64,000 nucleotides of DNA from contig JAYWIR010000091.1 in the NCBI GenBank assembly GCA_036172245.1, forward strand, positions 1 to 64,000, read 5' to 3'. Below are positions 13,901 through 64,000 of the stretch, piece by piece. A program made the position numbers and the translations under genes. A model generated the notes under the pieces. The model was not told the DNA's origin and searched no databases. It saw nothing but the letters and a program-made list of their open reading frames with translations. The stretch comes from Raillietiella orientalis (lineage: Eukaryota). How positions within the stretch are numbered: position 1 is the stretch's first letter; each line of letters begins with the position of its first letter.

Positions 13901-13904
13901 AAGT

Positions 13905-24487: not shown

Positions 24488-24489
24488 TT

Positions 24490-25853
24490 TACCCCACCCC
24501 TTGTGTTATTTGTGGAAAACTGCCTTGTTGGGGAGGATGCAGCTGGTTGCACCGTGTTTTCAAGCAACGCACCGTTGCTTTCTCCGGCGGGTATCGCCGG
24601 ACTTCCAGCAGCCTTCGTAAGGTTTCCTGATGAAGCCTCCGAAATGGAAGAGGGCTCAAGGAGACGGTAACCACGCAATCTTCATTCGCGTGTCCTCCTT
24701 TCGCGTTGTCGTACGGAGCGACTGGTTTTACTGATCCCAGTTCGCGAGTTGTATTTCCGCAATCAGCTACTGGGACAGTAACGGTACGTGCGGAGCCCTC
24801 TCTTTCTTTTTTAAAAGGCTTCCCTTCCGCGCGATTGCCCTTTTGGGGCTTTGATGCTGAGGGAGCCAACTTTGAGACCGCGCTCGTTCCTTTTTTATCT
24901 TCGGCTTTTCGCGAGCCTCGCTGTTTTTTTTTTAAGAATGCTGTATTCTCCTCTGTGCACTCTTTGGCACGCCTGATTCTAGCAGCCTCCTTTTTTTTCT
25001 TTATGTCCGGGCACTTGCTTATTTCGTGCCCAGACTCCTTACAGTAGCGGCACTTCTGGGAAGAACATTCTTTATTCCGATGCCCGTCTTTGCCGCATTG
25101 CTCGCACGCGCGAGTTTTGCCAACGAACCACAGGAGAACGACCGTGCCGTTGACCTGTAGCGTGGCAGGCAGCGTGCGGCGGTTCGGAAAGGTTACCCTA
25201 ACCGCAGCAAATCCTGTATGGACGGAAGTAATTTCTTGTAGGAACTCTCCTTTCTCCACACCGCATGAACGGTGACGAATTTCGCCAACGCGTCCGTCAG
25301 TTGTTTGTTGTTGATCTCCGGCTCTACGACCGAGAGAACAGCGACAAAAGACTCGTCCATCGCGGAAGGAAAAACTTTCTTTCCGCGGATGGACGAAGGA
25401 TTGCAGAGGAGCCTTTGCACAAGTGCAGCCTGCTTGCATCGCACCTTCACATGGCCTAATGCTGGAACAGGCATGAGTGCTATGAGGTCCTCTCGCACTC
25501 CCACACGGAAAAGTTCGTCCGTGAACTCCTCCCCAGTCTTACCTACCTTACTTACGTTATAGCAGAGAGCAGGCTTGTAGACCTGGGCTACATGCGCTCG
25601 CAACTCCGCCCCGTCGAGGAGGCATCCTTGTACGGCTGCAGATGCAGCCACGTCCGCAAAGCTCCTGGCCGGTGGTGCGGGGCTCGCGCACGTTGTCGCC
25701 ATCGTTCCAGCTGCGGGAAGTTCCTGAGCCACAGGCTCGAGTTCTTGTACGTTGCGTTGTTCACTGTTTATCCTTAAGAATGTACAGTGGGATGCACAAA
25801 CACAACCAAACAGCGGAACCACGGAGCAACACGAAATCACGTCCGTCTCTCGT
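24490..25853 (-). mobile_element. Gamma copy, 5' end and ORF1 N-part
   Basis: 5' motif ACGGACGTGATTTC near 25833-25846; ARSFADVAA, CEQCGKDGHRNKEC, CRYCKESGHEISKC. Confidence 0.9.
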
Positions 25854-26187
25854 GAAAGCGAACGTTGAAATCGCCTGTAACCAGATGGGGATTCAGCACG
25901 CCTTCTTCGGTCAGCCACTAGAGACGGAGGGCAAGGTAAAAGTCTTTTCTCGCTCTCCTATTCGTCAGGTCTGCGCCGCTTGGGGCGCACATGTTCATCA
26001 CGATCAGGTCGATCGAGTCGGACCACCTGAGAGTCATCTGGACGACACGACCGTGATCGTCGAGCCGCACGCCCCGCGCCGCGGCTTAGACGGCTGGCCG
26101 AAGCAGGAAGACAAAATAGCAACTGTTTTCTTTCCCACACCTATTCCATAGCCGCCCCTCAGACATTCGTTCGATTTCTCGCGCCCT
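25854..26187 (-). mobile_element. Endonuclease fragment ending at GDFNVR (host of gamma)
   Basis: Minus strand reads ...WSDSIDLIVMNMCAP...HLVTGDFNVR; GDFN codons 25875-25864. Confidence 0.85.
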
Positions 26188-26505
26188 TACAGTGCAGACG
26201 TGTTTCCGCGTCTATCCGCGCAACGATCGAGCAACTTTGTTTCAGCGTTCTTGCTCGCACTTGTGTGTTCCTATGGAATCTGCCGTGTAGCATAGTGCAA
26301 CATGGCCAGTACACAGGATAGTGTGGAGGAGCAAGCCACTGGATGCACTTCAGCGGCACTTGAAGTGTCCGCATCCTCCGTAATGGTTTCCTCGCCCCCA
26401 ATGAGGAGTTACACCGCCGTTACCTCCCAAAGACCAGGACCCTGCGATGCGGAGTTGCATGCATATGTGTCATCAGGATGCATGCCTGCACTCCATTATA
26501 AGATC
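26188..26505 (+). mobile_element. 5' end and ORF1 start of another copy
   Basis: AGTGCAGACGTGTTTCC 26191-26207; RSYTAV...AELHAYVSSGCMPALHYK. Confidence 0.75.
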
Positions 26506-27410
26506 GACGGTCTCGCTGCCGACTTCGAGTTTGTGGGGAAGCCAACCGTTTTCGTGGACGGTCACACGTGCTGCAGCCACGCCACTGAACATTCTTCCGT
26601 AACTTTGGAAGACGTTCGGCTTGATCCAGACCGTGCTTACCATGCCAGGTTTACTTAATTGCTCCCTCACGCCTGTTTTTGACATTCCGAGGGTTGCTCC
26701 TGTGAGTTGCGCTGCTTCAGAGCGATCCTCGTTTTACCGGGAAGTCCTTTCTGCCTTCCAGCATGAGAGGGGTATTCAGCAGGCGTTGAGCCAGACTTAC
26801 ATGTCTGCAAGTTAGCTCGACCTGCTGGCCTTATCTGAGCACTAAAAGACCTTCTAGGTTCTCCTCTTCAACATGTAGCCGCTTTAATTCCCTCTCTAAA
26901 TTGCGGCCGTTATTTCGAACGAGCAGATTTCATAACTTGTAAATCAAGAACTGTTTGTATCCTTGTTCCAGGTATGTGCCCTGTTCTGCTAAGGCTGCAG
27001 GAGATGGCGCTGCAGCCACGGCGCTTCAGGACTTCGTGGATGGAGCAGACGGTAGCAGGGACGCAGTTGTCCCCTTTTTCCAAGGGGCGGTTGCAACCTT
27101 TTCCAGGAGGGCGTTTGCCAACTTTTTCAAGGAAGCAGTGGCCCCCTGTTTCAAGGGGGCTGTTTCCACAACTTCCGAGGAGGCGGTTGCTTCTTTTTCC
27201 AAGAGAGCGCTCGCCCTCTCCTATTTAGGGGCGGTTGCCCTTACTTGCGTTGGTTGGGGTGAGGAACAAGCCTCACCCTTTCCAATCTCCATCGCGGTGT
27301 CCGCTGGCATTCCTGCCATGACACAACGGCGTTGCACCACTCACAAACACACCAAAAAAAGCTTCGCAAACTTATGCGGCAGGAACGCAGACAAAACACG
27401 TTTTCACGCC
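26506..27410 (-). mobile_element. 5' end and decayed ORF1 N-part
   Basis: ARVTVHENGWLPHKLEVGSETVDL; 5' motif variant GTGAAAACGTGTTTT near 27393-27406. Confidence 0.78.
27060..27242. repeat. Degenerate 24-bp tandem repeat, about 7-8 units, in ORF1 N-terminus
   Basis: Recurring GGRGCNGTTGC...TTTTCCAAG pattern with 8-codon period. Confidence 0.7.
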
Positions 27411-30450: not shown

Positions 30451-30454
30451 GACG

Positions 30455-45414: not shown

Positions 45415-45420
45415 TCTTCA

Positions 45421-47902
45421 TCGTGAGCGAACGTGTTTTTCCGTCGCTCCGCCTGCGTGGCAAGGCGAGCGTTTTTACTTGAGCATTTTGTGCTTTCACA
45501 TCGTTGGTGTCCGATGGTTACGATGCCAGAGGGCATTGCGATGAAAGTAGGCGTAAGGGAGGCTTGTTCGTCCCCACAGCCCACTGAATCAGGGGCATCC
45601 GCCCAGGATTCGTCCCAAGCGCTACAGACAAGGACTTGGAGTACCATGCTGGCAGCGCCCAGCGCCGAAGCCTTGGCAGAGCAGAAGGCCTATCGGGCAG
45701 CAGGGTAAAAACCCCCGCTGGTATACAAGGAAGGTCCATTGTTTGATGGGCGGACTGCATGCGCCTTTACGAAGGCGCGGCGAAACGCGAACATCAGAGA
45801 GCAAGATCTGCACGGCCTCTCCGTCCTCAGCGGGGGTCAGCGGGTCGAGATGGTACGCAAAGATATCACCTTGGCCGAACGCCTGATCGTCGATCCGCTG
45901 ATCGTTGATGGTGAGAAGATCTTGCCGGTGACGATGGATCGCTCCGTAGTGGTCCATCTCACCGGGACCACCAGCCGAGTGACGCAGTCAGCGGTTGGTG
46001 ATCAGTTATGCAGGCACGCTGAAGTGCACGCGTTGTGGCCGACGCCTACGATTTTTAAAAGCTAGAATAGCCTTTTCGGGGGCCAAGCCGCGGCGTGAGT
46101 CACGGTAAAAGAGGGCGGTGCGCTTACCTACAAGCTGGAGGTCTGCCAAGAAGCGATAGACGTCTGGTAAGTAAGGAAATCCCAATTTTGTGGCTACTGC
46201 AATGCAGTAGGGCATCTTAGGAAAAGGTGCCCGAACATTGTGTGCCACTTATGCGGGGTGTAAAGGCACGTTCGACGCGTGTGCCCCAAGCGCCTTACCT
46301 TGGTGCCCACTGCTGCCAAAAAAGCACAGGGAAAACGTGCGAAACTGGTCGAAAGACCAACGCAGGGAAACAGCCGTTCCCAGCCGCCAGCCCCAGCTCC
46401 TCATGCAAAGGCGGGGGGAGAAAATACTCCCGAAGACGCGAGAGTGAAGAAGGGTTAGCAGTTGGTTAAGGCCAAGAGAGAAAACAAGAAAATTCTGGCA
46501 GAAGAAAAGTCGGAGAAGAAAACTGCCGGCAAAAAGAAAAAAGCTGCGCCGCTTTCTAAAGAACTCCGGGAATGCTCGGTGGCATTGGTACGCTTAGCCG
46601 TTCCTGCCGAGGCCGCCTACGGCATTGCTCAACAGATAGCTGCTGAGGTCGCAACCGGTAATCGCGTGGACGAACCCATTCTACGTTTAGAGGGTGAGAC
46701 GCGAAACTCGCGGGCCGACAGCGAGGACGCCGCGCTCAGTAAGGTCGCAGAGGAGCCCGCGGCAACGTTCGCCGTCAGCAAGGACGCCGCGCTCGGTAAG
46801 GTCGCGGAGGAGGGCGCGGCAACGTTTGCCGCCAGCGAGGACGCCGCGCTCGATCAGGTCGCGGAAAAGCCCGCGGCAAGGCTCACCGATTGCGAGGACG
46901 TCGCCTTCGAAAAAGCGGTGGAGGAGCTCGCAGCAACGCTTGGCGAGCGCGAAACCCCGTTGCACAAGGGCGTCCGCAGGCCGGCACCGAAGAAAGTGCC
47001 TCCCAAAAGTGAGTCCGACCGGGAGGCCGGATATTCATCCTCCTCCGCGGAGGTACCTCCTCGAAAGGCAGGACGCTAGTCCCAGAAGCCCAAAAGGTGC
47101 CTTCCCGTTTCAAGCGAGGAGCAAACAGAGGAAGATCACGGCAGCGTGGCGGCCCCGGAGGGGGATCCTCCATGCGCGGACGCTGGCGCACAGGCGACGC
47201 CTATGGAGGAGGGTGAGCAGCGTAACGAAGCCAACCCTGCATGCGCCGAACCCAAGAAACCCGCCCCTATTGAGGAGGGCGATCAGGTAGGCGCGATCAC
47301 ACCTTCGGGAGACACGCCTGAGGCGCCGACACCAATGGAGAAGGAGGATCAGGTTCTCGACGCACGACCCGTTTCCCTCCTAGCCTCCCGCCCCAAGAGT
47401 TGGCGGACACCGCAATGCCACTTTCCCAGGATTCACACCTGGGCTCGCCTGTCGCCGTCGGAACCGCGCGGTCAGTTGGAATGTCAACGGGCTGCGCGAC
47501 GACGGCAGCAAACGAGATACAGCCGACACGCTGCGTGAGCTCGAACTGGCTCTGCAGCAGGAGATCAACGTGATCTTCGCGGTGGACGTCCACGAGATCG
47601 AATCGATCGCGTGGGGTCTGTTATACTAGCAAAGCGGCGCCCGCAACATCCGTATGGTCACGCTTTTTGTGAAGTCAGCCGTCGACGCTGCCTTGAAGGG
47701 CGTGCGTTTTGATGACGACGGTCAGGTCAACCAGCTGATTCTCAAATGGTCCGACTCAATCGACTTAAACGTCAGACACGTGTATGCCCCCAGCGGTAAG
47801 CAGAGGTACCGCGACCGTACTAGGTTGCTGCAGACGCTGAAGCGCGACTGGCTGGCGGACACGAACGTGCGAATGGCTCACCTGATGACGGGAGATTTCA
47901 AT
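45421..47902 (+). mobile_element. Beta, left part: 5' UTR, ORF1, EN up to GDFN
   Basis: GAGCGAACGTGTTTT 45425-45439; decayed ORF1 knuckles; WNVNG 47477; ends GGAGATTTCAAT 47891-47902. Confidence 0.88.
46720..46940 (+). repeat. 57-bp (19 aa) tandem repeat x4 in ORF1
   Basis: AGCRAGGACGCCGCG at 46720, 46777, 46834; SEDAALxKVAEEPAATF units. Confidence 0.88.
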
Positions 47903-49764
47903 CGAGTGCGGACGTGTTTTCCTTCGCTCTCGCCTCCGTGCTTTCATCCGCTTCATCTTGGCGTCGTACATTTTGACGACGATGTCGACCCAACTTGGAG
48001 CTACTGAAGGAGGAACAGCATCCGGATCTGCAATCGCGGAACCTACGGCCGCCTCCACTTCGTCTTTCTCGCCAATGGAGAGGAGTTTTGCTGACGTTGC
48101 TGCCACAGCAGCCGTCAAAGGGAAACCACTCGACGAGTCGGAGTTGCGGGCATACGTAGCCCAAGGCTATAGACCTGCTCTCCGATATGAGGTGAGTGGT
48201 TTTCTTTCTGCGCGCGACGGGAATCAGTTCAATGATGAACTAACCCGTTTTGGCGTGCGGGAGGAGGACCTTCTCGTTATTATGCCCGTAAAAGACATGG
48301 GCAATTTCAAGGTGCGTTGCAAAGACGCTGCACTTGTGCAACGCTTGCTGCGCAACCCGTTGTCGATCCGTGGCCACAAGGTCTTCCCAGCCGCCATGGA
48401 CGACTCATTTGTGGCGGAGATTTTCGACATCGAGTCAAAAATCTCCGATATTGATATTCGGAACGCGTTGGAGAAATTCGCGACGGTCCATGCGCAGTGG
48501 AGGGTGCGTAGCAACCTCAAGGACTTCCCGTCCATACACAGCGGAGTCGCTGGAGTCCGGCTTACAATGCCAGACCGCCGTCTGCTGCCTACCAAACTAC
48601 AGGTAAAAGACACGGTCGTTCACCTGTTGTTCGTGGGCAAAGTAAGAACGTGCGAGCAATGCGGGAAGGAGGGGCATTGTTTGGATAAATGCCCCTCTGG
48701 AAAATGCCGTTATTGCAAACTATCCGGGCACCAATTGAAAAATTGCCCGGATCGTTTGCGAAAAAAGGCAGCCGCGGAGCTTCATCTTAAGAAACAAAGC
48801 GCGGATAATAAAAAAAAATCTGCGAAAAACCTGGAGACCCCACGGCAGAAATTCGGTAAAAACGCGAGGCGGAATGTCGCTCCAAAGCAGCAGGAAACCT
48901 CGCACGCGAAGCCCTGCGCACCCCCTCTCGCAGCAGGGGAGCCGCAAAAGAAAGGGTGCGGGGAATCCGGGGCAATGGTAAGTCCCCCTGGGCGCAATAG
49001 CTGTCCTTCCCAAGCACGCCCGGATCTTTCGGATTTCGAGCAACCGGCGGGGACGTCAATGGACAACGGCGGTAAGGACACCTCCAGTACCGTCAGATCC
49101 ATTCCTTCACCTCCTGCACTGGCTGAGAAGCCCAAATCGGGTAAGAAGGGTTGTGCCGTGTTAACTTCGAAAGTCGGCAAAAAAAAATCCGCGTCGCGAT
49201 CCAACATTGCGGAAGCGGAGAAAACTCTCACGCCGTCGCAGTCGGAGAGCAAGCTCTCGACTGGCGGGGATGCCATGCCAACGAAGGGATTGAAAGCCCT
49301 TCCGAAGGCAGCGTCCATGACGAGCGTGTCGAAGCCATCCAAAGTGCTCCCGTCCAAAGACGCGGATGGCTTCAAAGATGGCAATGGAGCACAATCTTTA
49401 TTTATGGCGCCACGCGAAGTGAGGAACCGTAATGAAGTAAAGAAGACTTCAGCAAAGGTCCCTCGTGCAACTGCGCGTGAGCACGCTGAAAACGCGCGCG
49501 CCGGGAAAGCAGCCGTCACCAAAAGCGATGCTCTGGAGACTGAAAAAGACAACAGGACAGCTGTCAATCCAGCAGAACCTGTCACTACTTCGCGGGAGGC
49601 CGAAACCCGATCTAACATGCGCCGGTCGGACTCCGAAATGGATGCCGTCCCGATCACCGAGACGAGGACAACTCGTTCAATAGCGTGTGCTCCCCGATCA
49701 AAAGTAGGCAGCCAGGCAACGCCCGCCGCTAAGCAGCGCGAAGTCTCCACGAAACCCAACGGGG
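47903..49764 (+). mobile_element. Gamma, 5' end and almost complete ORF1
   Basis: CGAGTGCGGACGTGTTTT start; open 611-codon frame with ERSFADVAA, CEQCGKEGHCLDKC, CRYCKLSGHQLKNC. Confidence 0.92.
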
Positions 49765-51915
49765 TTTTTCACACGGGTAAGCCTGGGCTTTGATTACTAA
49801 AATTTTAACATTACAAAATTTTGTAATCAAGTCTATGTTCTTAAAATTTTTCGCTTTACGACGTCAGAAGTTCAGTGCAGAAGTTCAGTAGCACTTGTCC
49901 TTACCGACCCGGAGGCCGATAAGGTCCTTCACTGGCGCCGAGACGGGAAAAATAAAAGAAAACAAAAACAAAAAAAGAAAAACGTCTTGAGGGCAAAGTT
50001 TTTTGGGGAGGGGGAGGGAGGGGGGGATTATGGTGCGCCGTGAGCCGGCCTTTGCATCCGGTTTCGGATGCGAACAAGTGCTGGCAAATGATTTTGAAGT
50101 CGGCGCCAACGGCACGCTTTCTCCAAGGAGATCGCAGCCCAGTGGATGGCATTCCGGCTGGTCCTACCTCTCCTAGACGCGGTTCACTTCTCCAGGATAC
50201 CGCGTATGCAGCAGAGCACTGCTACGCTCCCGGGGGCTGGCAAGTTGTCTCGCGTCAGAAGGCGTGTGAATAAATTTTTCGTGTCACCCTCCGGAATGTT
50301 GAGGATCGACGAGAGTCTGTCCACATTTCGTGGAGGGCAACACACTCCAGAACCAAGTGGGAGAAGGTCTCCCTTTCCCCGCATTCTGCACAACTAGCAT
50401 CCACATTCCCCGATTTCCAGCGTGACAGGCGTGCTCTGCTTAAAAGTCCCCAGTGGAGCAGACGCAACGCCGTCTCCTGCCACTGCAGGGGAAGGGTGCC
50501 GTTGTCGCATGACGCTGGGGGCCACTTCACCTCCTCCGGAGGTATACCGAGCAGCGCGCCTTAGCGTAAAAGTCCGTTCTGCGGGACACTCGGAGTACTA
50601 GCGTTCGCTAGTTCCCACGGCGTCCACGCCTTCAGTGATTTTTTCCTGCCTCCGATGAGGCAGGACACTTCCCATGAGGCCTGTTGGTGGCTGTGTCGAA
50701 CTTCCCTGAGGGAGGCAGCACTGGGGCAAGGGGGGTGAAGGAAGCCCACAGAAGTTTCCGTGGGTTGGAAGCGATCTCCTGGAGTGGCTGACCAGCGTGC
50801 ATTCCTCTGCGGAGGCAGGAGAAGTCCTCATCGCTGGTGCCATTGATCTTCGCCCATGCGGATACGGACGCCTGAAGCCAGGTTGTCCAGTCCGCTGGGA
50901 TGCAGGAGATCCAAGGGTTGTCTCTCATCAGAGCAACCAAATCCCGCAGCTGATAACCACAATGGTTCAGGCTGCGTTTGTTGGCTACCAGGATTGAAGT
51001 CAATCCGAAGCACCTGGTTGCCCTGTGAGCAAGGAGTCTTGCTGGTGCACACCAGGGTGCTGTCCAAAACTTTGCCACAAGGGCAAGTTTTCTGAATTGG
51101 AGCTGCCGCTCCATGCGCTCCAACGTCAGGAGACCAAGTCCACCGTCCCTGCGTGGAGCGCACAAGTCTTTGAGCCGGACGCGAGGCCTCCGGTAGCCCC
51201 TGAGGGCTTTGTGTATAAGGACCCTAGTCCGTGTCCTAATTTGATACAAGGTAGGGCACACAAAAAGTAGGGGGCGAAGGAGGGGTTCCGCGAGAGCGTT
51301 CCATACCGTGGCCCGTTCCTGCAAGCGAAACTTGCCGTTCCGGAACGGGCCGATCGCCACGTCCACCTTTTGTAGACGGTCGGACCAGGCTTCTGCAGAG
51401 AAGAAGTGCCACAACGTAACGCGAAGGAACTTGATGTGCCTGCCCTTGGGGATCCCCAAGCGGATCCAGTCCGACCGTCCGGCCCTCTTCGAGTCGGTGA
51501 AAAGCAACGACGACTTCGTCCTGTTCACCTGGAGGCCTGTCCCACGGTATAGCAACTCGAAGAAATCCTCGAGCGCCGATGCCGGGGAGGACCTGGGAAG
51601 CAGGAGCAGAAGATCGTCGGCATAGGTCGACACGGAAGGCGTGCCGGGACACAAGCTCGGCAAGGTTGCCAAAGTCTCCCTGTATGCTCTCAGCACCAAC
51701 TCAAAGTAGATGCAGAAGAGCAGGGGGCTGAGGCTGTCACCTTGCCGGATGCCACGACGAACCGGCACGCGGAACACGTGCCGGCCGCTGAAATTAATAT
51801 TTATGAACGCGTAGCTCTGGCAGGAGCGCAGGTAGGCCAGGAAGACGGCCGGAAATGCCAAGGGTTCCAGGAGCTCCAGAAGGAGCTCCTGGTCGACGCA
51901 GTCGAAAACTTTACG
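49765..51915 (-). mobile_element. Epsilon copy 2: RT from KAFD-site to 3' end
   Basis: Begins RKVFDCVDQELL; 409 aa ORF with QGDSLSP, YADD; ends AATCAAAGCCCAGGCTTACCCGTGTGAAAAA. Confidence 0.9.
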
Positions 51916-51919
51916 TCGG

Positions 51920-51937
51920 CTAGAGCGGACGTGTTTC
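51920..51937 (+). promoter_or_regulatory. Conserved 5'-terminal motif (candidate internal promoter or initiator), representative copy
   Basis: GAGCGGACGTGTTT variants at element starts near 4983-5000(-), 9190(-), 15852(-), 25833(-), 26191, 27393(-), 45425, 47904. Confidence 0.6.
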
Positions 51938-53728
51938 CTCGGTGCTCCTCGTGCCGGGAAGCGTCCCTAGGTGTAGGCTTCGAGTGTGGTGGTGGTCGAT
52001 CAGGCAGCAATGCCTGACACGACCACCAGTGCGTGTCAGGGGGCGGTGGCAACGTCGCCTCCTGAAGAAATGTTGTGCCAGGTGGCGGCGGCAACGTCGC
52101 CTATAGAGAATGTGGAGTGCCAGGAGGCGGCGGCAACGTCGCCTTCAGTGGCGAAGGAGGAGGAAGCGTTCGCCCTCACAAAACCGGTCCCCGTTGCAGC
52201 GCGTGCTTGGAGCGCCGTCGTGTCGGCGCCATCGCCTGCAGCCGCGGCGGAATTATCTGCCTATGTGGAAGAGGGGTATAACCCATCACTATTCTACAAG
52301 GTAGGCAATTTGTATTCTGCTGAGATTGCTTGCGCCTTTTCGAAGGGGATGCGCGCTCTCGATGTTAAAGAGAAGGAGCTCTGCGCTATGACCGTTCCTA
52401 GCGGAGGGCAGTACGTAGAGGTGATCTGCAAACATGCAGATCTGGCACAACGTCTGCTTGAAACCCCCGTAATAATGAAGACACTAAGGTTCCTTCCCGT
52501 TACGGCGGACCACAGTATGGTGTTCCACCTTCTAGGAGTTACCGCGCGGATGCAGAAAGAACAGTTACGCGCCGCGTTGGGAAAAGAAGGCACGGTCCAT
52601 GCAGTATGGACCAAGACTAGTCCTTTCGAGGACTATACCACAGTTCAGTGCGGCCTCACGGCTGCCCGTGTAACCGTTTGGGAGAACTGTACCCTTCCCC
52701 ACAAACTGGTGGTCGGCGGAGAAAGCGTCGACCTCTGGTACGTGAGGAAGCCGAAATACTGTGGCTTCTGCAACACATCGCGACACCTCAAAAGGAGGTG
52801 CCCCAACGTACAGTGCCTGGTATGCGGGACAATGGGTCACACGAAGGAAGTGTGTCCACAATCCGCTGTGCGCGTGGTTACCGCGAGGAACCTAAGAAAA
52901 CGCGCGCGGCTGCTACGGAAACAACTGGCGGCGAAGGCTGCCGCTCAAGATGTGCCACCCACTCTCGTGGTCCAGGTCTCAGCCGACACCCCGGCAACGA
53001 ATGCCGAAAAGATCGACAAAAGCGGTCAGGAGTCGAAATGGCAAGAGGTCACAGCGAAAAAGAAAAAAAAGTCGAAGAATGAACGACGAATTGAAAAAAA
53101 AGTTCGCCTACCAAAATAAAAAACAGCAGGTTAGCGAGAATTTAAAAGAATGCAGCGTCGTAGTGGAACTTGTCCCCGCCGAACGCCGCAAGGTAGAAAT
53201 CGCTGCTACCTACGAGCAACCCACTGTTGAAAATGTCAACAGCGTGGGGAGCGAACCCACGGAAGCGTCCGTCATCGAGGCCGTGATCGATGACGCCGCC
53301 TTCTAGCGTGCGGCGGAGGATCTGGCTGCATAGTTGCAGCCAGACCCCTCGAAGGCTGGCAAAAAGGCAGTGAGGCGTCCGGCCTCAACCGAGGAGTCGG
53401 TAACTTCCGACCCCGAAGCGAAGACCGGAAACCAAGTTTCTATTTTGGCGGCACCCCGCTGGAAGGCTCGAAGGAAGGACAGGAAACCGGGGAAAGCCCC
53501 TCTCCAGGTCGAAGGCGTGGAGATGACTTCCCACTGCGAGGGTGCCATTAGCGTGGGAGAATCCCGGGAATCGTCACCCGAGAGACCACCACGCACAGAC
53601 ACGGAGGAGATGGAGGGGGCTGAAGCCGGAAAGGTACTCAAGGCGCCTGAGGAGACTGGAACCCTAATGGTCAAATCACCCGCCTCCGAAGAGGCAGGTT
53701 CCCCCACACCGTCGTCTTCCCGGCAGTA

Positions 53729-55333
53729 ATGCCGGCAATCTCCTCCCACCGTCGTCTGCGCATCGCCGTTTGGAACGTGAACGGCATGACAGACGCCGGA
53801 AGGAGGCGAGACATGGCCGCCATCCTAGGATCGTTCGACCTTGCGCTGCTACTGGAGATCCATGTGATCTCTTCAGAACCAGCGCAGGAGATCAAACGCA
53901 TCTCAGGAGGGCAGCTGTTGTATGGGTGTGGAAGATCGAGAAGTTGTGGTGTCGCCTACCTGCTTCGGCCCGCCATCGAGGCGGCTGCCCGTGGACTTCA
54001 GTTCGACGATCACGGTCGTGTCGGCCAGCTGACTCTCAGCTGGACCGACTTGATCGACCTGATCGTTACAAACGTTTACGTCCCGAGCGGAGCGGACCTG
54101 ACGAACAGGAGGGCCAGGAAAGAATTTTTCCTTGCCCTCCATTGCAACTGGTTGACCGAGGCAGGCGTGCGGAATGCCCATGTGGTTGCAGGCGATTTTA
54201 ACGTTCGTATGAACCCGGATGGGCCTAATCACGAGCGTGACCTGGTCAACGAGGTGTGCGCGGCGGTGCACACTTGTAATTTGTTAGCCAGTGTACCAGG
54301 GATGGACGACAACATCGATCACGTGTTCCTTGACGAGCACCTGTGCACTCGTGTGGGCGGGCGCTGCAAGTTGCCGTGCGAGTTGTCCGACCATCGACCA
54401 ATCGTGATTGAAATCCATCCGCGCAACAGGGGCCCCCCCTCGTCAGCGTGGCGTTTGCCAGAAGACTGGCTGAAGCTCCCGGACGCGACGGAACATCTCC
54501 GCACGTTCATACGGAGCTTTAAGATGCAGGCACTTCAGGATTGGGACTGCTTTAAACGGTCGGTCCAGGAGTTCTGCGACCAGTTCCCTCTGCACCCCCT
54601 AGCTGTGGGATTTGGGGACGAAGTACGTAACAAACGAGCCTATCTGCAGGCTCGCCGTTACGCCAGGACCCTTGACATCCGCAGGCTAACAGGATACAAA
54701 GCGGGAGCCAAGAGGCAAGCCTGGCAGTCAGGATCGGCCTGCTTGCTGGACGATCAGGGCCAGGAGCATACGGCACCCGTTCAGATCCGCGGTCTGCTGC
54801 GGAGTTTTTACTCCTCCCTGTACGCAAGAACTCCTCCCGAGCGGGATTTCTTACGAATCCTGCTTCCGGAAGGCGCTTCTGCGATCGGGGAAGAAAAGAA
54901 AAAGTCCCTCGACGAGTGTTTCACGATGGGGGAGATCATCTCGGCCATCGGAAGGCTCAAGAGGCGAAAGGCTCCAGAAGAGGACGGCCTGTCCGCGGAG
55001 TTTTATCAAACTTCCGCGGATGAGCTAACCCCCCTGGTACATCAACTCACCTTACTGATACGCAAGACAGGTGACTTTCCCGCCTCGTTTCGTTCGGCAA
55101 AGATGCGGCTTCTCTCTTTGGGAGGAGATCTGAGGAGCATGAACAACTGGCGTTTCATCACAATAGTGAATGCGGATGCCAAGTTGATAGCTAAGGTTTG
55201 GGCTGAGCGCTTGAAACGGGTTGCAAACGCCTACATCAGCCCGGAACAGACGTATGCTGTTCCGGGGCGAAGCATGAAGGCGAACCTGTTCCACGCTTCC
55301 ACCTGGCTAGAGCTCCAACACGAAAGGGCTTGA
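53729..55333 (+). pseudogene. ORF2 N-terminal half: APE endonuclease, linker, RT start
   Basis: 534 aa: VWNVNG, LLE, NVYVP, GDFN, IDH, SDH, then NADAKL, SPEQTYAVPGRS; frameshift at ~55328. Confidence 0.9.
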
Positions 55334-57529
55334 TGCGCACCGGGAATTCCGGTGAGTCCGTCAGTCATGCGACGGATGGTCGGATGGGAGAGGGAGCACT
55401 TGCGTTCGCTGTCGACTTGGGTAAAGCATTCGACAGCGTCGACCAGAATCTCCTGCTGGAGCTTTTGGAACGCTTAGGCTTCTCGGCCTCATTATTGGCC
55501 TATCTGCGCTCTAGCTGGCGCGATGCACAAATCAATGTTACTTTCAGCGGGCATACTATTCACGGTGTGCCGGTGCTACGTGGGATCCGGCAAGAAGACA
55601 GCCTGAGCCCCTTGCTGTTCAGTACCTACTTTGAGTTGGTACTGAAAGCGTACAGGTAAACTCTGGCGCACCTGCCGCATGAATGCGCCGGAACGCCTGC
55701 AATTTCAGCATATGCAGACGACCTCCTGCTACTGCTCCCTATTTCCACTCCAACTTCGGCGGTTTAGAAGTTCTTCGACCTGCTGAATCAAGGAACCGGA
55801 CTTACGGTGAACTGGGCGAAGTCGTCCGTGATGCCAGTTGGTGCGGCGTGGGCAGGGAAGCAAGACTGTCTCCGTTTGGGGATGCCCACGGTGACGTACT
55901 TCAAGTACCTTGGTGTGCGTTGGGGGACTACTCCCCTGCGGAAGCGTTGTCCGGTTGCCTTCAAAAAGTAGAGACGGCTATCGGCCCGTTCCGAGGCGGC
56001 TCGTTTTTCCTGCCTGAACGGGCCGCGGTTTGGAAGATGTTCGCTGCTCCTCTCCTCCGTTGTCTGCTTTTTGTTTGCCCCCCAACAGAGAGGATCAAAA
56101 AGCGGACGAAGGACCTTCTCCGTATCGCGCCTTCGGGCAACGGGAGGGCCCGTGTCCGCTTGAAGGACTTGTGCGCTCCGCGTCGGAACGGTGGTCTCGG
56201 CCTCCTGACATTGGAGCGGCTGGAGCTGTAGCTCCAGTTCCGGATTTTAACACTTGTGCCGGAGTTGTGGTGCACCTGTTGGTGCGTCCCTGCACGTCTC
56301 CACCTTCAGCAAGCCACCGGCAATACGGGACTTACGTTGTTTCTGGCACTCCATCGAAGCCGCATCAACCGAATTGGGCTTGATCTACGGAGGTTGGCTG
56401 CGCTGGCAAGCAAAAATCAAGGATGGATCACCTGTCTCCACGCAAACGGTAGTGCCTGGTTGCAGGAAACCGTTCGCACGTGGGGACAGTTGGGCATGCA
56501 ACCCTCCCATCAGGAACGAAGGATCCTGTTTGGGTGTTACAGAAGTTGCACGCTCAGAGAGATCCTGAAGGATCCTAAGAAGAGAGCGTGGTCAGCAAGA
56601 ACCCCCCTCGCTGCTGCGCTGGACTCCCTAGTGGAACATCAGGACAGCGATGTTGCGGCGAAGTGGGAGGTTACAATAAAAATCTCCGGGAATGAGAAGA
56701 AGCAGAGAGAGTGGAAGATGGGCCAGCTAACTGATGCTGCGACCCCGAGTACGCCTTCTAATGGACTTCTATGCTGGAGAGCTCTGCTGGATGTTCCGAT
56801 TGAACATCTGAAGTGGCCCCCGATTCTTATGAACACTTCCTTCCTCCCCTTAAAATAGCAAGAGTCGGCATTCCTGTTGCAGCACTGGGGACTCCCCTGC
56901 AACGCCCGTCGACACCACTGGACCTTTGGAGCGTTGGATCCCAATTGTGTGAGGTGCGGGGAACGGGTTTTCCTCCCCCACCTCCTAGTGGATTGTGTTG
57001 CCCTTCGACCCCTTTGGTTCGGCTTTGCCGCGGCCATCGGTGTCCCTTGCAGCAACCCCAGGGACGCACTAAAAGCCTTTTTCGTTGTCGACACCCTCCG
57101 GCCAGCATCCTCGATAGAAGCCTTGTTCTGCCTTCGTGGCTTCGTCGCCGCCTGGAGCACGGTGACGGGAGGACCTAGCGATCAGGAAGCCATTTAGTGC
57201 GCCTCCGAATTCCTGAGGAGGGCGTCGCGATCATTCCACCTGGATGTTCACAACAAACAAGAGGTTGCCAGCATCCTGAGAGGGATGATGCGGCCCCAGC
57301 AGCATCAGTGATCCCTTCCCGTTCCCTCCCACCCTTTGTTTTCTTTTCTTTAGTTTTTTTGTTTTTGCCCTTTCCCCTGCTGCCTTGGTTGACAGTACCG
57401 GTCAATAAACCGGTGAATTGGCAGGCGCCGTGGTTCTTAGCTTCTGGCTGGAGGATTGCCACAGCCATAAATAATTTGTTTACAAAGTTTATTTTCTTAA
57501 TAAACGACCCGGAGAAATCTGGGTGAAAA

Positions 57530-57749
57530 TCGAACGCCTTGTGGAGATCGACCGCGACCGCCAAGGCACCTGGCGTACCCTCCTGCCGTCGGAGGCTGTT
57601 CTTCTTGCCTGCGGCAGTGAGTTTCTCAGCAGCCTGGCTTCGCTGCGCCACAACTTCCTGAAGCTGCATCCATGTACGCGCGAATAGGATGTTCGCCTCC
57701 ATGGATCGTCCCGGAACCGCGTTGGTTTGTTCCGGGCTCACCACAGATT
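57530..57749 (-). mobile_element. RT fragment ending at HKAFD (right flank of alpha copy 2)
   Basis: SPEQTNAVPGRSMEAN...ALAVAVDLHKAFD. Confidence 0.9.
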
Positions 57750-59815
57750 CCGCGTGTACGGTATTCCCGTGTTTTGGGGCATCCGACAGGGCGACAGCTT
57801 AAGCCCGTTGCTTTTCAGCATCTTCTCTAAGCTGGTGCTAAGAGCATACAGGCTGACGCTGACTCACTTGCGAAGCTTCTGCCCGGGAACGCCTGACGTG
57901 GCCGCCTACGCTGATGACCTGCTTCTTCTGTTCCCCATGTCCAACCCGTCGTCCAGTGTCGAGGATTTTTTCGACCTGATTCGTCGGGGAGCGGGCGTGA
58001 GCGTGAACAGAGAGAAGAGTGTGGTCGTTCCTGTGAGTACGTCGTTGGAGGGGCAGTCCGACTGGATGCGCCTGGGGATCCCCACGGGCGGGTACTTTAA
58101 GTACCTTGGCGTTCCGTTGAGCGCTTTCGGAGCAGCCGGAACGTGAGCGGACTGTCTTCAGAAAGCAGAGTTGGCCATCAGCCCGTTCTTTAACGGCAAG
58201 TTTACCTTGCAGGAACGGGCGACTATTTGGAACACCTTTGTGGCCCCCCTCCTCCGTCCCCTGTTTTTTGTTTTGGACCCCCCCTTTGCAGCGAAACAGC
58301 GGGCTAAACGCCTTCTCAGGAACGCACTCTGGGGTCCGGCGAGATCCAGGATCCACCTTGAAAATTTGTTAGTTCCGCTTCGGGATGCTGGTTTGGGTAT
58401 CCTGACAATGGAGCGAATCGGACTGCAGGTGCAGTTCCGACTGCTGGCACTGTGTGCCCAGCTATGGACGTCCCCCCTGTGTGTTCCAGCCCGCATTTTC
58501 CTGCGGAGATGCGCAGGCAGCGAAAGATTTCTCTCGCTTTTGCCGGGCACTCAATACAGGAAGCGGGGTTTGGGGTTTCCATTGCGGCATTTGACCGCTC
58601 TTCTGGAAGCACACTCGTGGATCTCCTGCCGCCCAATGGACTTTGAAGCTTGGCGGCAGGAGTCTATTGAATCCTGGATGACGTTCAAAGGAATGCGCTC
58701 TGAAGTTCTTCGCCCCCTGCGCCAATTCTTTCCGCGATCCTTGGAAGAAGTACTGCAGGACGAGGTGAAGTTTTCTACCGTGGCTGCCACGCCGGTTTCC
58801 GCAGCGCTGTCTGCCCTCAGGGCAAGAAACGACAGTTACCAACTGGCGAGGTGGGAGGTTTCCTGCACGATAGCGGGAAAACCAAAATCCTTGGCGCCTG
58901 GAAGACGAGTGAGTTGGCGGACGCCGCCACTCCTCGTGTTATTGCAAAGGGACTCCTCCGGTGGGCAGAAGAACTTGCTGTCACCCCCGTAGAACTTGTA
59001 GTCCCACCACAGTGTATTGACTGTTCGCTGCTCTTCCTTGTTTGTAAACAAGCCGTGCTGCTTTTCGTTCACTGGGGTTTTCAGTGCAACGAGCGTTGGC
59101 ATCGTGACTCCGGGGGACTTGCGTCTGGGAACTGCGCTCGGTGCGGATCGACGGAGTCGATTCCGTACCTACTTCTGAACTGCGGTGTCCTACAAGGACT
59201 GTGGCGTAGGCTCGCAACAGCACTAATGCATCCCGTGGACACCGCAAGAGACTTGCTGCGACGATTCTTCACGCCGAGAGGGCTGTCACTAAGCGCAAGG
59301 ATTGCAACCATCGGTTGCATACGCGCGATAGTTTCCGTCCGCCAGGCGTTGGTAATCAACGGACAGCACAAAGAGGTAATCAGCAAAGCATCCTTTTACA
59401 TGAGAGCATCCGCTAGATGGCCTTATTTGACAGAGGAGACAAAAAGGAATCTCGCCGCAATACACCGCCGGTCTACACACGCTCAGCCGCGGCCAACCCG
59501 GTGATCATTGCCCTACCCTCCATACACTAATTTTGTATTTTCTTTTTACCAGCGTCCCCATAGGCTCCGGAACATTTCAGGTGCTCATCGTATAAATCCC
59601 CGTGAGTACGGAGCCTATCCAAAATACCGTTACCCTTCCCTCCAGTTTTTGATTTTTGTTTGTTTCTCCTCATTCCTCCCACGCTGCGAACGGTTTGTTT
59701 ACCAGGCCTGCGTGCCGGTAATTTTTCTATGTTTTCTGTCCTTCTGTTGGTTGGGGACTTTGTCCCTGACCAGTTTATTATTATTAATAAACGCTCCGGC
59801 GTGACCTGGTGATAA
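57750..59815 (+). mobile_element. Gamma 3' part: RT C-half to 3' end
   Basis: QGDSLSP, YADD, HWGFQCN, CARCG; AATAAA 59786-59791, CCGGCGTGACCTGGTGATAA. Confidence 0.92.
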
Positions 59816-62800
59816 ATTTCAATCTCTGCCTGCTAACGGGTGAGCCGGCAACACATGAGAGTGTGATGAACGAGTTGTGCTCCGCCATGCCTGCTCGCAA
59901 CTTGTTCGCGGGAGAGGAGGAAATGGTCCACAGCATCGATCACGTCTTCCTCAACGCTGACCTGTGCTCACGGGCCGGCAAACGGGGCAAGATTGCGTAG
60001 ACGCTGTCGGACCATTACCGGATAATTTTCGAGATGCGGCCGCACGACAAGGGAGCGTCATCAAGGGCGTGGCGTCTGTCGGGGGACTGGATGCGACTCT
60101 CAGGTGCGAAGGAACATCTTTGCAAATTTCTTAGAGGCGTCACGCTCAAGAGTTTGCAGGACTGGGTCCATATTAAGGAATCAGTACGGGAGTTCTGCGA
60201 GAAGTTCCCCCTGGACCGCGTCTTCCTAGGATTTGGAGAAGGGTCTCGCAATCATCGGTCCTATTTACAGACCCGTCGGTACGAGAGAACCCCTAATGTC
60301 CGTCGCCTGGAGGAACAGAGCGCTGGGGCCTAACGCCAAGACCGGCAATCCGGGTCGGCCAGCTTCCTGGATGACCAGGGCAGGGAACGGTCTTCCCCGG
60401 CGGCGGTACGGCATTTCGTGCGGGGATATTATTCCTCCCCTTACTCCAGGGCGCCCCCGGAGCGAGACGTTTCTCGGCATTTGCTTCCGGATGGTGCCCT
60501 CGTAAAAGTAGAGGAGGAAATGTCAAGCCTCGACGAGCCTTTTTCCACCGGCGAAAGTCTCGCCGGTGTCAAATAGCTCAAAAGTCGTTAAGCTCCAGGG
60601 AAGGACGGCCTGCTCTCGGAGTTCCTTCAGAGCTTTGTGGAAGAGCTGGCACCCAGGCTGTTTAAGTTGACAAGGCTTATCCGAGACGAAGACAATGTTC
60701 CCGCCTCGTTTTGGTCAGCCAGAGTGACGCTCCTTCCAAAAGAAGGAGACCTGAGAAAACTCACCAGTTGGCGTCCGAACACAATTGTGAATGCGCACGC
60801 CAAGCTGATCGCCAGGCTGTGGGCTATGCGTTGGGGACAGGTAGCCAATACCATAATTATCCCGGAGCAGACTTACCCTGTTCTTTGGCGAAGTATGGAG
60901 GTCAACGTTTTCTTCGCGGTCACATGGTTGCATGTGCAGAGGTCTCATAATGAAGGACATGGGAAAATCGACAATTCCACTTTGGGGCCGCCAGTCGGGC
61001 AGGGAAGCAACTTTCTGGCTGGGAAAGGATTCCTAGCGATCGCGGTCGATCTGCATAAAGCGTTTGACTGCTTGGACCAGGATCTCCTCTTGGAGATCCT
61101 GGGGCGCATGGGCTTCCCACCCTCTCTGACAACTTATTTGCGCTCCTGCTAGCGCAGTGCGATGATAACCGTTGTTTTCAGAAGTCAGCAGGTGTATGGC
61201 GTGCCGGTGCGGAGGGGCATAAGGCAGGGTGACAGCCTCAGTCCCCTGCACTTTAACACCTACTTTGATTTGGTGCTGAGAGAGTATAGGGTGCCAACGG
61301 AGCCTTGCCTTTTGTTTTCCCCACCCCCGTAGAATGCAAAAAGAGGACTGAGGACCATCTGCCCTCTGGGGCAGCGGGAAGCCCCGTGTGCCTCTGAAGG
61401 ATTTATGCGCTCCGCGCCGGAATGGCGGTGTTAGCCTCCTGACGTTGCAGCGCTTGGAGATTCAGCTGCGATGGCGCACCCTCGCTATCGCAGCGAAGAC
61501 TTGGTCCACCCCTTTGAGCGTTCCGGCTCGCCTTCTCGCCAGCCGTGTGTCCCGGTGCGAAGAGCTCGCGTGTTTTCTTCTGTGCCTTGCCCGGAAGATC
61601 CGAAGATGCGGCCTACAGCTCCACCGCATTGCATCCTATGCGAAGGAGAACAGCTGGATGGTTTGCAGCCCCGCCAACTGCTCTGCATGACTGGAAAAGA
61701 ATATCGGCACCTAAGCTGTCGTAAACCAGATGAGCCACGAATCGTGGTATCGTCTCCGATGCATCCCCTACGCCCGTTGCAAGCAGCGGAATCTCCTGGA
61801 TAGCCCCGATAGAAGCATGTGGGCGGAGACGACCTGCCCAGCTACGGCGATGCCCTTTCTGAGGAGGGCGCTTAACAGCAGCTGAAAGCTGGGGAATCCC
61901 GCTGCGGAATCTCCTGGAGAGTCCAGCAAGATGCACGTGGGCAAAGACGACCTGTCTAGCTACGGCGCTGCCCTTCCTGAAGAGGGCACTTCACAGCAGC
62001 CGGACGCCAAGGTGGCAAGTCTCCTGCTGCATCGAGGGACGCGAAAAGTTGATCAGCGGCTGGACAACAATAGAACTGGCAGACGCCACGACCCCGAGCG
62101 TCCAGCCGCGAGGACTAAGAAGATGGGGCGAGCTGCTGGCCATCCCTATGGATGTGCTGAAGTGGCCCCCGCTTCTTCAGGAATCCAGGATCCTGCCTCT
62201 TAAGTGGAAAGAGTCGGCGTTGCTGTTGTTGCATTGGGGTTTACCCTGCAACGCACGCCGCTCTCACTGGACAAGAGGAGTTGTGGATCCTGCGTGTGTC
62301 AGGTGCGGAGAGCGGGAATCGCTCTCCCACCTTATTATGGACTGTGCTGCCCTTCGTCCCCTTTGGAAACGGTTTGGGACGATCCTCGGTCTCCCAACGG
62401 GCAGTTCCCCTAGAGACGTTCTTCGGCCCCTCTTCGTGAAAGACGCCCTGCAGCCAGCCGCAGCCCTTGCAGCCTTGTGCTGCGTCCGAGGCATCGTGGC
62501 GGCATGGAGCGACACCAACAAGGAAGGAGTGGTTCAACACGCGAGGGATGTCATCCCATATTCCCAATGCTTCTTGCGAAGAGCTGCCGGATGGCCCCAA
62601 CTGGGGAATATGAGGACTCACCTCGAGGGCTTCGTTCGACGGATGGGCCCTCTCCACAGCGAACAGTGATCCCTTCCCTGCCCTCCAACTTCTTTTTGTT
62701 TGTTTCTTTTTATTTTACTTTTTGTCTTATCCCCATCCCCCTTCGCTGTCGGGGAGTGCCACGCCGGGCTGCGTCCCGGTGTCCCGACAGGTCCTGTGTT

Positions 62801-62874
62801 TACGGCCGTGGTGGGGCCTAGTACCACGCATGTAAAGTTGATTAATAAACGCCCCGGGCGTACCCGGGTGATAA
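59816..62874 (+). mobile_element. Beta, right part: EN from (D)FN to 3' end, with internal deletion near 61290
   Basis: Starts ATTTCAAT; SIDH, GFGEG, DLHKAFD, QGDSLSP, CVRCGERESLSHLIMDC; AATAAA 62844-62849, CCCGGG-CGTA-CCCGGGTGATAA. Confidence 0.9.
62844..62874 (+). terminator. Conserved 3'-terminal AATAAA plus hairpin, representative copy
   Basis: Same layout at about 13 element ends in the window. Confidence 0.7.
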
Positions 62875-63297
62875 CGCCGAATTCAAGGGGCAGGCGATCC
62901 AGGGGCAACTGCTCACAGAACTCGCGGACGGATTCCTTAAAAAGATCTCAGTCCTGGAGATTCCGGAGCGTGACGCCTTTCAGGTATTCGCGAAGGTGTT
63001 CCTTCGCACCTGAGAGTCGCGTCCAGTCCCCCGGCAGACGCCAATCCCTGGATGGCGGTAATTAGTCGCGAGGCCGCTTCTCGAAAATTAGCCGGGAATA
63101 GTCCAACAACGTCGACACAACCCTCCCCCGTTTGCCGACGCGTGAACACAGGTCAGCGTCCAGGAAGACGTGGTCGATGCTGCGGACCATTCCTCTCTCA
63201 CCCGCGAACAAGTTGCGCGCACGCATCGTGGCGCACAACCCGTTCATCGCGTTCACATGTGTTTCCGGCTCACCTGTTAGCAGGCGGACATTGAAAT
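62875..63297 (-). mobile_element. EN/linker fragment bounded by the GDFN site and the GFG site
   Basis: FNVRLL...SIDH...PLDRLPLEFG; both ends coincide with recurrent insertion sites. Confidence 0.9.
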
Positions 63298-64000
63298 TTA
63301 TCACCCGGTCACGCCGGGGCGTTTATGAATAATAATAAACTGGTCAGGGACAATGTCCTTAACCAACAGAACGACAGAGAACATAGAAAAATTACCGGCA
63401 CGCAGGCCTGGTAAACAAACCGCTCGCAGCGCGGGAGGAATGAGGGGAAACAAACAAAAATCAAAAACTGGAGGGAAGGGTAACGGGTTTTTGGTTAGGC
63501 TCCGTACTCACGGGGATTTATACGATGAGCACCTAACATGTTCCGGAGCCAATGGGGATGCGGGTGTAAAAAGAAAATACAAATTTAGTTTATGGAGGGT
63601 AGGGCAATGATCACCGGGTTGTCCGCTGATGAGGGTGTGTCAACCGGTGGTGTATTGCGGCGAGATTCCTCTTTGTCTCCTCTGTCAAATGAGGCCATCT
63701 AGCGGATGCTCCCATGTAGAAGGATGCTTTGCTGATTACCTCTTGGTGCTGTCCGTTGATTACCAACGCCTGGCGGACGGAAACTATCGCGCGTATGCAA
63801 CCGATGGTTGCAATCCTTGCGCTTAGTGAAAGCCCGCTCGGCGTGAAGAATCGTCGCAGAAAGTCTCTTGCGGTGTCCACGGGATGCAATAGTGCTGTTG
63901 CCAGCCTACGCCACAGTCCTTGTAGGACACCGCAGTCCAGAAGTAGGTGCGGAATCGACTCCGTCGATCCGCACCGAACGCAGTTCTCAGACGCAAGTCC
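63298..64000 (-). mobile_element. Gamma 3' end, runs off the window
   Basis: Highly similar to 59115-59815; ends ATAAACGCCCCGGCGTGACCGGGTGATAA. Confidence 0.92.

Follow-up and report, generated by a model that had tools for sequence, protein, structure and literature searches.

The gamma family of long interspersed nuclear elements (LINEs) is very probably a site-specific, L1-like lineage that integrates in sense at the GDFN codons of the endonuclease of other LINE families. It is described here from a window of 64,000 nt of Raillietiella orientalis DNA (GCA_036172245.1, contig JAYWIR010000091.1, positions 1-64,000, forward strand), which consists almost wholly of diverged, interleaved LINE-like retrotransposon copies. 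The gamma junctions in the window record three separate insertions at one site, all with the same orientation, into decaying hosts that belong to different families. All results come from this one 64-kb window and from the contigs of one related public run. The run, the only public one found to share the window's words, carries 0.11 of them; its contigs are mostly 85-95% alike and, to judge by its sequence, it is a relative and not the same genome; window parts without clear contig support from it are left out of the evidence. The features discussed are collected in Table 1.

Two gamma 3' ends are present, and both adjoin the same host sequence. On the plus strand, the end of the 3' piece G3 reads GGTGATAA (59808-59815) and is followed by ATTTCAAT (59816-59823); on the minus strand, the end of the second copy, G3b, reads GGTGATAA (63305-63298) and is followed by ATTTCAAT (63297-63290). 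The 15-mer GGTGATAAATTTCAA has exactly two matches without mismatch in the window, namely these two junctions, and no further match there with up to 3 mismatches (shuffle mean 1.41). On the 5' side, GGAGATTTCAAT is joined to CGAGTGCGGACGTG at 47902/47903 (+), where the 5' piece G5 starts, and GGCGATTTCAACGTTCGCTTT to CACGAGAGACGGACGTG at 25855/25854 (-), where the 5' end of a second, diverged copy (G5') starts and 9 more host bases are kept than at 47902/47903. Thus in the window 2 of 2 G3-type 3' ends lie at ATTTCAAT in sense, and 2 of 2 5' ends of the gamma open reading frame 1 (ORF1) clade lie at GDFN or GDFNVRF in sense. The three events that share a target nucleotide and an orientation are those at 47903/59815, 63298 and 25854. 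In the related run, a contig of 3755 nt has its start 28 nt ahead of the G5 5' junction, and a second contig runs 19 nt across the G3 3' junction.

The host flanks of 47903-59815 show where in the coding sequence the element sits. The left flank ends in ...MTGDFN; to the right the reading goes on as (D)FNLCLLTGEPATHE..., in line with the endonuclease of L6, a full-length LINE of the family called beta in which this endonuclease is intact (ORF 53651-55333, GDFNVRMNPDGPNHE). Since the right flank is colinear with the L6 endonuclease, ATTTCAAT is truly duplicated; both of its copies, 47895-47902 and 59816-59823, are in frame with the host codons and are the (D)FN codons. The duplication is the 8-bp ATTTCAAT, or the 6-bp TTCAAT if the AT after GGTGATAA belongs to gamma. 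The 12-base pattern GGNGAYTTYAAY has 4 matches in the window as against 0.25 expected. A sequence-only reading of this DNA had placed gamma in sense at the GDFN motif, with the second 5' junction about 9 nt further on, and all four of its junctions are read directly from the sequence where it had put them. It had also seen an 8-bp target duplication. The duplication in frame stands; it does not prove a single event at 47903-59815, because every copy of a site-specific element carries it.

Occupied and empty sites differ in their spelling. The comparison covers the 7 endonuclease sites of the window that include the motif, which are small numbers. All three occupied sites read GATTTCAA (47891, 25864 and, for its right half, 63290-63297), as against none of the four empty ones, which are spelled GATTTTAAC (L6), GACTTTAAC (2814, -), GACTTAAAC (the endonuclease of C2, a relative of the gamma clade, as GDLN) and GATCTGAAC (an unrelated LINE, 21316). 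This difference fits a presumed recognition of the DNA sequence by gamma. The C2 endonuclease reads GDLN at 7680-7691 (GGGGACTTAAAC) where the targeted hosts read GDFN (GGAGATTTCAAT). Such a spelling may protect the gamma clade from hitting itself. An eighth endonuclease, that of the LINE copy C3, has a deletion of ~130 nt over the GDFN codons (12004-12016; residues 160-201 in the L6 frame). A further motif match at 18628 (GGCGATCTCAAC) lies outside any endonuclease and was rejected as a chance match.

Several observations weigh against a strict target at GDFN. C2 ends at about 11764 (CCCGGGTGATA), inside another endonuclease and ~290 nt upstream of its GDFN, with ~540 nt of the 3' region gone. 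G4, a second relative of the clade, ends at 14679, antisense of the ORF1 tail of a beta element and not at GDFN. With C2 and G4 included, only 2 of the 4 3' ends of the clade lie at GDFN. In two related-run contigs, the gamma 3' end is followed by AT and then by unrelated flank (loose end 63296; short, agreement 0.86). The window has no gamma endonuclease that extends over its own catalytic motif, and the stretch 47903-59815 may be two events brought together, so that its duplication is not independent proof. Finally, the evidence for site specificity comes from the window and the related-run contigs only.

C2, G4 and the flank of one related-run contig, all at other sites, are what one would expect if gamma preferred the LINE cluster as a region, for example through its chromatin, and the repeated use of GDFN came from chance or from a weak local preference. 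The Zepp-like literature, in the excerpts covered, likewise speaks of existing copies or centromeres and names no nucleotide. A regional preference is nevertheless improbable as the whole explanation. Three events at the same nucleotide (within 9 nt on the 5' side) and in the same orientation, in elements of ~5.5 kb, are very unlikely by chance; by rough arithmetic, two events at one base and strand would be expected about 1 time in 10,000. The spelling of the site, GATTTCAA at 3/3 occupied and 0/4 empty endonucleases, also speaks against a merely regional choice.

The age of the insertions relative to their hosts bears on whether the two 3' junctions are independent. The pair compared for divergence is 59115-60219 and 64000-62894. 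The insert sides are 94.0% identical (659/701) as against 81.7% (330/404) for the host sides (Fisher p = 3.8e-10), and when sites in CpG context are left out the values are 94.6% (561/593) and 84.3% (257/305; p = 8e-7). By maximum likelihood, the mismatch rate changes at 59824 (2-lnL interval 59783-59861; lnL gain 21 over one rate). The host mismatches are spread evenly over the codon positions (21/26/27), and the hosts were therefore old, neutrally decaying copies when the younger gamma entered. The impression of the sequence-only reading that the two gamma 3' ends are more alike than their hosts is thus confirmed, with the break at the junction. The comparison of insert with host at 59815 and 63298, which it had proposed, gives unequal divergence, so a simple inverted duplication is not borne out. 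Its preference for independent insertions agrees with this inequality, with the finding that the hosts are two different nested LINEs, and with a third junction that is offset by 9 nt and adjoins a diverged ORF1.

An inverted duplication in a less simple form would have one host copied together with its gamma junction as an inverted segment, and later gene conversion would have made the insert side look younger. The two 3' junctions do make up an inverted pair (~1.1 kb, 89.5% identity), and common descent would give identical junction bases. However, the step in identity sits at the element boundary, and it would take a coincidence for conversion tracts in the two arms to stop exactly at the junction; the 9-nt offset of the third junction is also foreign to such a history. 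Moreover, the two arms belong to different LINEs. Host 1, a full-length LINE of ~5.5 kb from the family called alpha, lies antisense inside host 2 (62875-63297 + 45415-42481). In the L6 frame, residues 182-322 of host 2 are at 63298-62876, and beyond host 1 the sequence continues from residue 320 at 45414-42481. The homology of the host arms stops at 62874/62875, which is the 3' end of host 1, and the inner edge of the 'repeat' is thus the insertion point of host 1 in host 2. Because host 1 is nested antisense in host 2, the 'inverted repeat' of host sequence is simply their two endonuclease regions, and therefore no inverted duplication is needed. We regard a duplication followed by conversion as very improbable. 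The evidence supports the two gamma 3' junctions as independent insertions at the same nucleotide, in sense, not as one inverted duplication.

In host 1, the match to residues 22-184 of L6 ORF2 is at 47420-47902 (tblastn), with GGAGATTTCAAT at 47891-47902. The 10-bp duplication around host 1 (5' junction 45415/45416) has 4 mismatches. The ORF1 region of host 1 also carries 57-bp tandem repeats at 46657-46941 (4-5 units, 62-84% alike) that encode P(M/I)E(E/K)(G/E)(E/D)Q-like units. C3 resembles the two parts of host 2 unevenly: 12015-12368 is only 71.5% identical to the endonuclease part (62888-63242), and 12373-13210 is 84% identical to 44576-45413. Mosaic ancestry or gene conversion may account for this.

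In the third event (25854, minus strand), the 9 extra host bases, coding for VRF, match the uninterrupted host reading, and this junction is therefore not the same by descent. The ORF1 proteins of G5' and G5 are 55% identical, as against 26-28% between that of G5 and those of four other-family (beta-type) elements, and the association with GDFN is therefore common to two deeply split sublineages. It is hardly credible that a host LINE already carrying gamma was retrotransposed, giving junctions shared by descent and a gamma without site preference: gamma does lie in sense, so that a host transcript could read through it, and G5 and G5' are about as diverged (68%) as their hosts (72%, 121 nt), but the equal divergence of insert and host that this account predicts is rejected for the 3' pair, the predicted identity of the 5' junctions fails by 9 host bases, and the three hosts come from different families (L6 is the nearest to host 3, at 77%; host 1 is ~69% identical to C3).

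The gamma element itself is present in pieces. The 5' motif of G5 is common to other full-length 5' ends in the window, and in its ORF1 two C-x2-C-x4-H-x4-C motifs are read in translation. The ORF1 protein itself has no Pfam match. It has 194 distant relatives at E <= 0.001, and among 10 that were checked zf-CCHC is found in 7, one of which also has RVT_1; its N-terminal part has no match among database proteins in the 348-1110 residue range. G3 is 79% identical to the reverse transcriptase (RT) of C2 as against 60-67% to others, and its part 57757-58146 matches RVT_1 in Pfam (E = 1.1e-7, 32.2 bits, cut-off 29.6), as does C2 (E = 1.3e-14). Of gamma's own endonuclease, the window has the first ~100 residues only, in the third copy (17975-18290, -). 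This start is 70% identical in nucleotides to the C2 endonuclease (7175-7500) as against 39-57% to five other endonucleases; the C2 endonuclease matches Exo_endo_phos in Pfam (E = 2.7e-6, 27.7 bits, cut-off 24.5).

The related run gives a further link between the 5' and 3' pieces. The 3755-nt contig mentioned earlier lies on 47875-49766 at ~96%, and a contig of equal depth is reported to join it to 57754, opposite strand, over 225 letters, which are the inverted RT piece P in sense, ending at the KAFD site. Only 1895 + 225 letters of the 3755-nt contig lie on the window. If the other ~1.6 kb of this contig fall between G5 and P, the order of gamma would be G5, ~1.6 kb (the end of ORF1, the endonuclease and the start of the RT), P, ~119 nt and G3, in total ~5.9 kb, which is close to the 5.5-5.6 kb of full-length elements in the window. 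The sequence-only reading had linked the 5' and 3' pieces through the nesting. The link is still indirect and at clade level; with the likeness to C2, the endonuclease start and the related-run contig it is better supported, and the pieces are probably halves of one kind of element.

The stretch 47903-59815 is rearranged: G5 (+) is followed by the tail of a foreign LINE called delta (-), L6 (+), P (-) and G3 (+). Delta is nearest to the copy at 5056-7069 (79%; 3' end ...GTGTGAAA) and only 64% identical to G3. A simple nested order, with a single minus-strand LINE ('M') in gamma and L6 in that LINE, was considered and rejected: the sequences to the left and right of L6 differ in their nearest relatives, and the copies of its 14-bp duplication show 5 mismatches. 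The mismatches by themselves are a weak argument, because the 10-bp duplication of host 1 also has 4. The layout of inverted P directly before sense G3, with ~119 nt missing between them, is like that of 5' inversion by twin priming in human L1. However, P is not beside the target duplication, as it would be in human L1; a nested LINE and a foreign LINE tail lie between, and therefore at least one further rearrangement is needed. It is possible that the order came from an inversion or from an assembly error. More speculatively, two beta copies, one in a foreign LINE within gamma ORF1 and one at the KAFD of a 5'-inverted gamma, recombined, in which case the stretch holds two gamma events.

As a site-specific element, gamma would integrate by target-primed reverse transcription at one defined DNA sequence. 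Its ORF1 carries two CCHC knuckles, its ORF2 an RT and, presumably, an apurinic-type endonuclease, and its 3' untranslated region (UTR) ends in a hairpin and GGTGATAA without poly(A). Its presumed endonuclease, by a likewise presumed recognition of the DNA sequence, would nick the bottom strand opposite GG(A/C)G^ATTTCAA; the target-bearing sequence is GGAGATTTCAATCTC, with the variant spellings GATTTTAAC, GACTTTAAC and GACTTAAAC. The freed 3'-OH would prime cDNA from the gamma 3' end, and gamma would therefore come to lie in the same sense as the host ORF2. The top strand would be cut 8 nt downstream in one event and, it appears, 17 nt downstream in another, which would leave the ATTTCAAT duplication.

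Table 1. Gamma pieces, their hosts and neighbouring LINE copies in the window
Feature	Position	Strand	Remarks
C2, gamma-clade relative	7070..11764	+	Endonuclease with GDLN 7680-7691, then RT; interrupted 7776-9220; 3' end shortened
G4, 5'-truncated gamma-clade relative	13902..14679	+	Ends ...CCGGGTAGTAAA
Third gamma copy, continuation behind nested LINE	17975..19062	-	ORF1 tail, inter-ORF spacer, endonuclease start; stops at 17975, where the 3' end of C3 cuts it
Unrelated full-length LINE, nested antisense in G5' ORF1	19063..24489	+	Boundaries approximate; endonuclease 20812-21414, RT 21963-22952 (Pfam)
G5', second gamma copy, deeply diverged: 5' end and ORF1	24490..25854	-	Starts CACGAGAGACGGACGTG
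Host 3 endonuclease	25855..26199	-	Up to GDFNVRF; tblastn residues 73-196
C5, probably rest of host 2	42481..45415	-	Residue 320 to 3' end; tblastn residues 320-558 at 45414-44698
Host 1 (alpha LINE), 5' part	45416..47902	+	5' end with GCGAACGTG motif, ORF1 region with 57-bp repeats, endonuclease to GDFN
Left target-duplication copy ATTTCAAT	47895..47902	+	(D)FN codons
G5, gamma 5' piece	47903..49766	+	Full 5' end (CGAGTGCGGACGTG...), ORF1 with two CCHC knuckles; cut at 49766 by minus-strand 3' end at 49767
Delta, 3' part of foreign LINE antisense in gamma ORF1	49767..51915	-	RT after KAFD to 3' end ...CCCGTGTGAAA
L6, full-length beta LINE	51916..57529	+	ORF1 51977-53119, ORF2 from 53651; Pfam Exo_endo_phos and RVT_1; 3' end adjoins antisense of RT KAFD
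P, inverted 225-nt RT piece (SPEQT...KAFD), gamma clade	57530..57754	-	68% to C2 as against 47-52% to 6 other copies
G3, gamma 3' piece	57755..59815	+	RT from motif B, C-terminal domain, ~310-nt 3' UTR, terminal hairpin and GGTGATAA, no poly(A)
Host 1, 3' part	59816..62874	+	Right ATTTCAAT copy (59816-59823), endonuclease C-terminal part, RT, 3' end ...CCCGGGTGATAA; tblastn residues 182-556
Host 2 endonuclease	62875..63297	-	GDFN (residue 182) to residue 322; cut by gamma at one end and host 1 at the other
G3b, second gamma 3' end	63298..64000	-	94.0% to G3; runs off the window

Other families of the window also have recurrent sites. In beta, the 3' ends of L6 (57529/57530) and of the copy at 13211-15880 (-) (13211/13210) both read GGGTGAAAA followed by TCGAACGC, antisense of RT motif A (HKAFD), and the 5' junctions (51915/51916 and 15881/15880, -) come after a 14-bp duplication of the KAFD site; the inserts are 76-80% alike and their flanks 59-76%. 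In alpha, the 3' ends of host 1 (62874/62875) and of the copy at 1-2398 (2398/2399) both adjoin CGCCGAA, antisense of EFG/GFG just behind the endonuclease; the inserts are 70-72% alike and the flanks 63%. The LINE nested in G5' is of another lineage, unique in the window (RVT_1, E = 2e-29); it ends in a hairpin and GAATGAATAA and has a possible TTACCCC duplication.

A broader and tentative reading, which we think somewhat likelier to fail than to hold, is that sister LINE families built the nest as a guild, in which each has a nucleotide-precise target in the codons of a conserved motif of its rivals, with escape of targets and with self-immunity of gamma through GDLN. The roles in the guild, to be taken with the same reserve, would be gamma in sense at the endonuclease GDFN, beta antisense at RT motif A (KAFD, with the 14-bp duplication) and alpha antisense at GFG. 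If this were true, each insertion would destroy the ORF2 of a rival, and families would escape by synonymous or near-synonymous changes such as GATTTTAAC and GACTTTAAC. The nest would then be a case of hyperparasitism and of an arms race among retrotransposons, and would offer a sequence-level mechanism for Zepp-like, possibly centromeric, LINE clusters.

Taken as a whole, the window is a nest of eukaryotic L1-like LINEs that have an apurinic-type endonuclease and lack a poly(A) tail. Its G+C content is 50-60%, an AT-richer block at ~32-42 kb excepted. Exo_endo_phos, RVT_1 and zf-RVT are found by Pfam on many stop-to-stop frames, and comparison of the window with itself gives 79 pairs of at least 150 nt at 64-90% identity. 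The full-length members of ~5.5 kb, L6 (51916-57529) and host 1 (45416-47902 + 59816-62874), have in common a 5' end with GCGGACGTG, two CCHC knuckles in ORF1 and, in ORF2, an apurinic-type endonuclease, an RT and a zinc-binding tail. In all the LINE families the 3' UTR ends in AATAAACG, a hairpin of 4-8 bp and GGTGA(A/T)AA (for example 59786-59815, 57499-57529 and 62844-62874), and a poly(A) tail is seen in 0 of the 11 LINE 3' ends examined in the window. Single folds of these 11 ends have stems of 4-8 bp. RNAalifold on the eleven gives a 4-bp consensus only and not the hairpin of the single folds, a result of loops of unequal length and of an alignment that is out of register. The common end has the look of a 'stringent' 3' recognition element.

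In database searches, the best named protein matches are of plant L1 type (24-31% identity), and one unnamed metagenome protein reaches 55%. With the ORF2 of L6, a search limited to longer proteins gives 7 weak matches; with the C2 ORF, one unnamed protein matches at 55% and the others at no more than 38% over short stretches. A metagenome scan with the junction pattern CCGG-N6-C-N-GGTGATAAATTTCAA gives one match, on a bacterial contig without resemblance to gamma. The AT-richer block (37-48% G+C) holds a 3.7-kb inverted repeat (33769-37453 and 38793-42479, 86% identity, spacer ~1.3 kb), one arm of which stops exactly at the 3' end of the LINE C5 (42481). None of the 12 frames tested in 31027-42623, the region of this repeat, has a Pfam match.

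Among known systems, Zepp and Zepp-like (ZeppL) elements are the nearest in arrangement. As described in the excerpts covered, these L1-type LINEs form nested clusters in Coccomyxa, Chlorella and Chlamydomonas that 'target existing copies', and many of them are 5'-truncated; the whole window fits such a cluster grown by insertion into existing copies. The elements themselves differ. In table 3 of PMC3747384, Zepp and L1-1_CR are listed with (A)n tails, whereas the elements of the window end in a hairpin and GGTGA(A/T)AA without poly(A). The ORF1 of Coccomyxa Zepp is given as without CCHC domains in the part of PMC5203782 concerned, in contrast to gamma ORF1 with its two CCHC knuckles. Because of the poly(A) of Zepp and the ORF1 of Coccomyxa Zepp without CCHC, membership in Zepp is not shown here, and no named Zepp was matched in protein database searches with the window proteins. 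In the Zepp-like literature excerpted, which does not extend to the original descriptions (Higashiyama 1997, Noutoshi 1998, Yamamoto 2003), no nucleotide-precise target inside a catalytic motif was found. Nor was a sequence-level account of how Zepp-like elements find existing copies found in the excerpts covered. Nested Zepp-like clusters are regarded as candidate centromeres in green algae. Targeting by gamma would give a concrete mechanism for the growth of a nest, namely elements aiming at each other.

In the choice of a target, gamma can be compared with the target-specific LINEs that have an apurinic-type endonuclease. These are found in the Tx1/L1 group, with Tx1L in the Tx1D transposon and Keno, Mutsu and others in small RNA genes, and in the R1 group, with R1 in 28S ribosomal DNA and TRAS and SART in telomeric repeats. 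They have one defined target, a fixed orientation and short variable duplications, and some are without poly(A). Tx1L is a LINE specialised on another transposon, and an ORF1 with CCHC zinc knuckles is a trait of the Tx1 and plant L1 types. Gamma resembles the Tx1 and R1 groups in its presumed apurinic-type endonuclease, defined target, fixed orientation and short duplications. It differs from them in that the target is the protein-coding DNA of rival LINEs at an endonuclease motif, not an RNA gene, a microsatellite or a DNA transposon, and in that several sister families, each with its own site, share one nest. In full-text searches of the literature on Zepp and on target-specific LINEs, the original Zepp papers aside, no description was found of a LINE aimed at catalytic-motif codons of other LINEs. 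Such codons are a target that rival elements cannot easily change. Gamma would be a case of a retrotransposon that parasitises and inactivates others, and its kind would provide a natural set of sequence-specific apurinic-type endonucleases with targets of ~12 bp. To the known targets of site-specific LINEs, which are rRNA genes, small RNA genes, telomeric repeats and one DNA transposon, it would add the catalytic codons of LINEs themselves.

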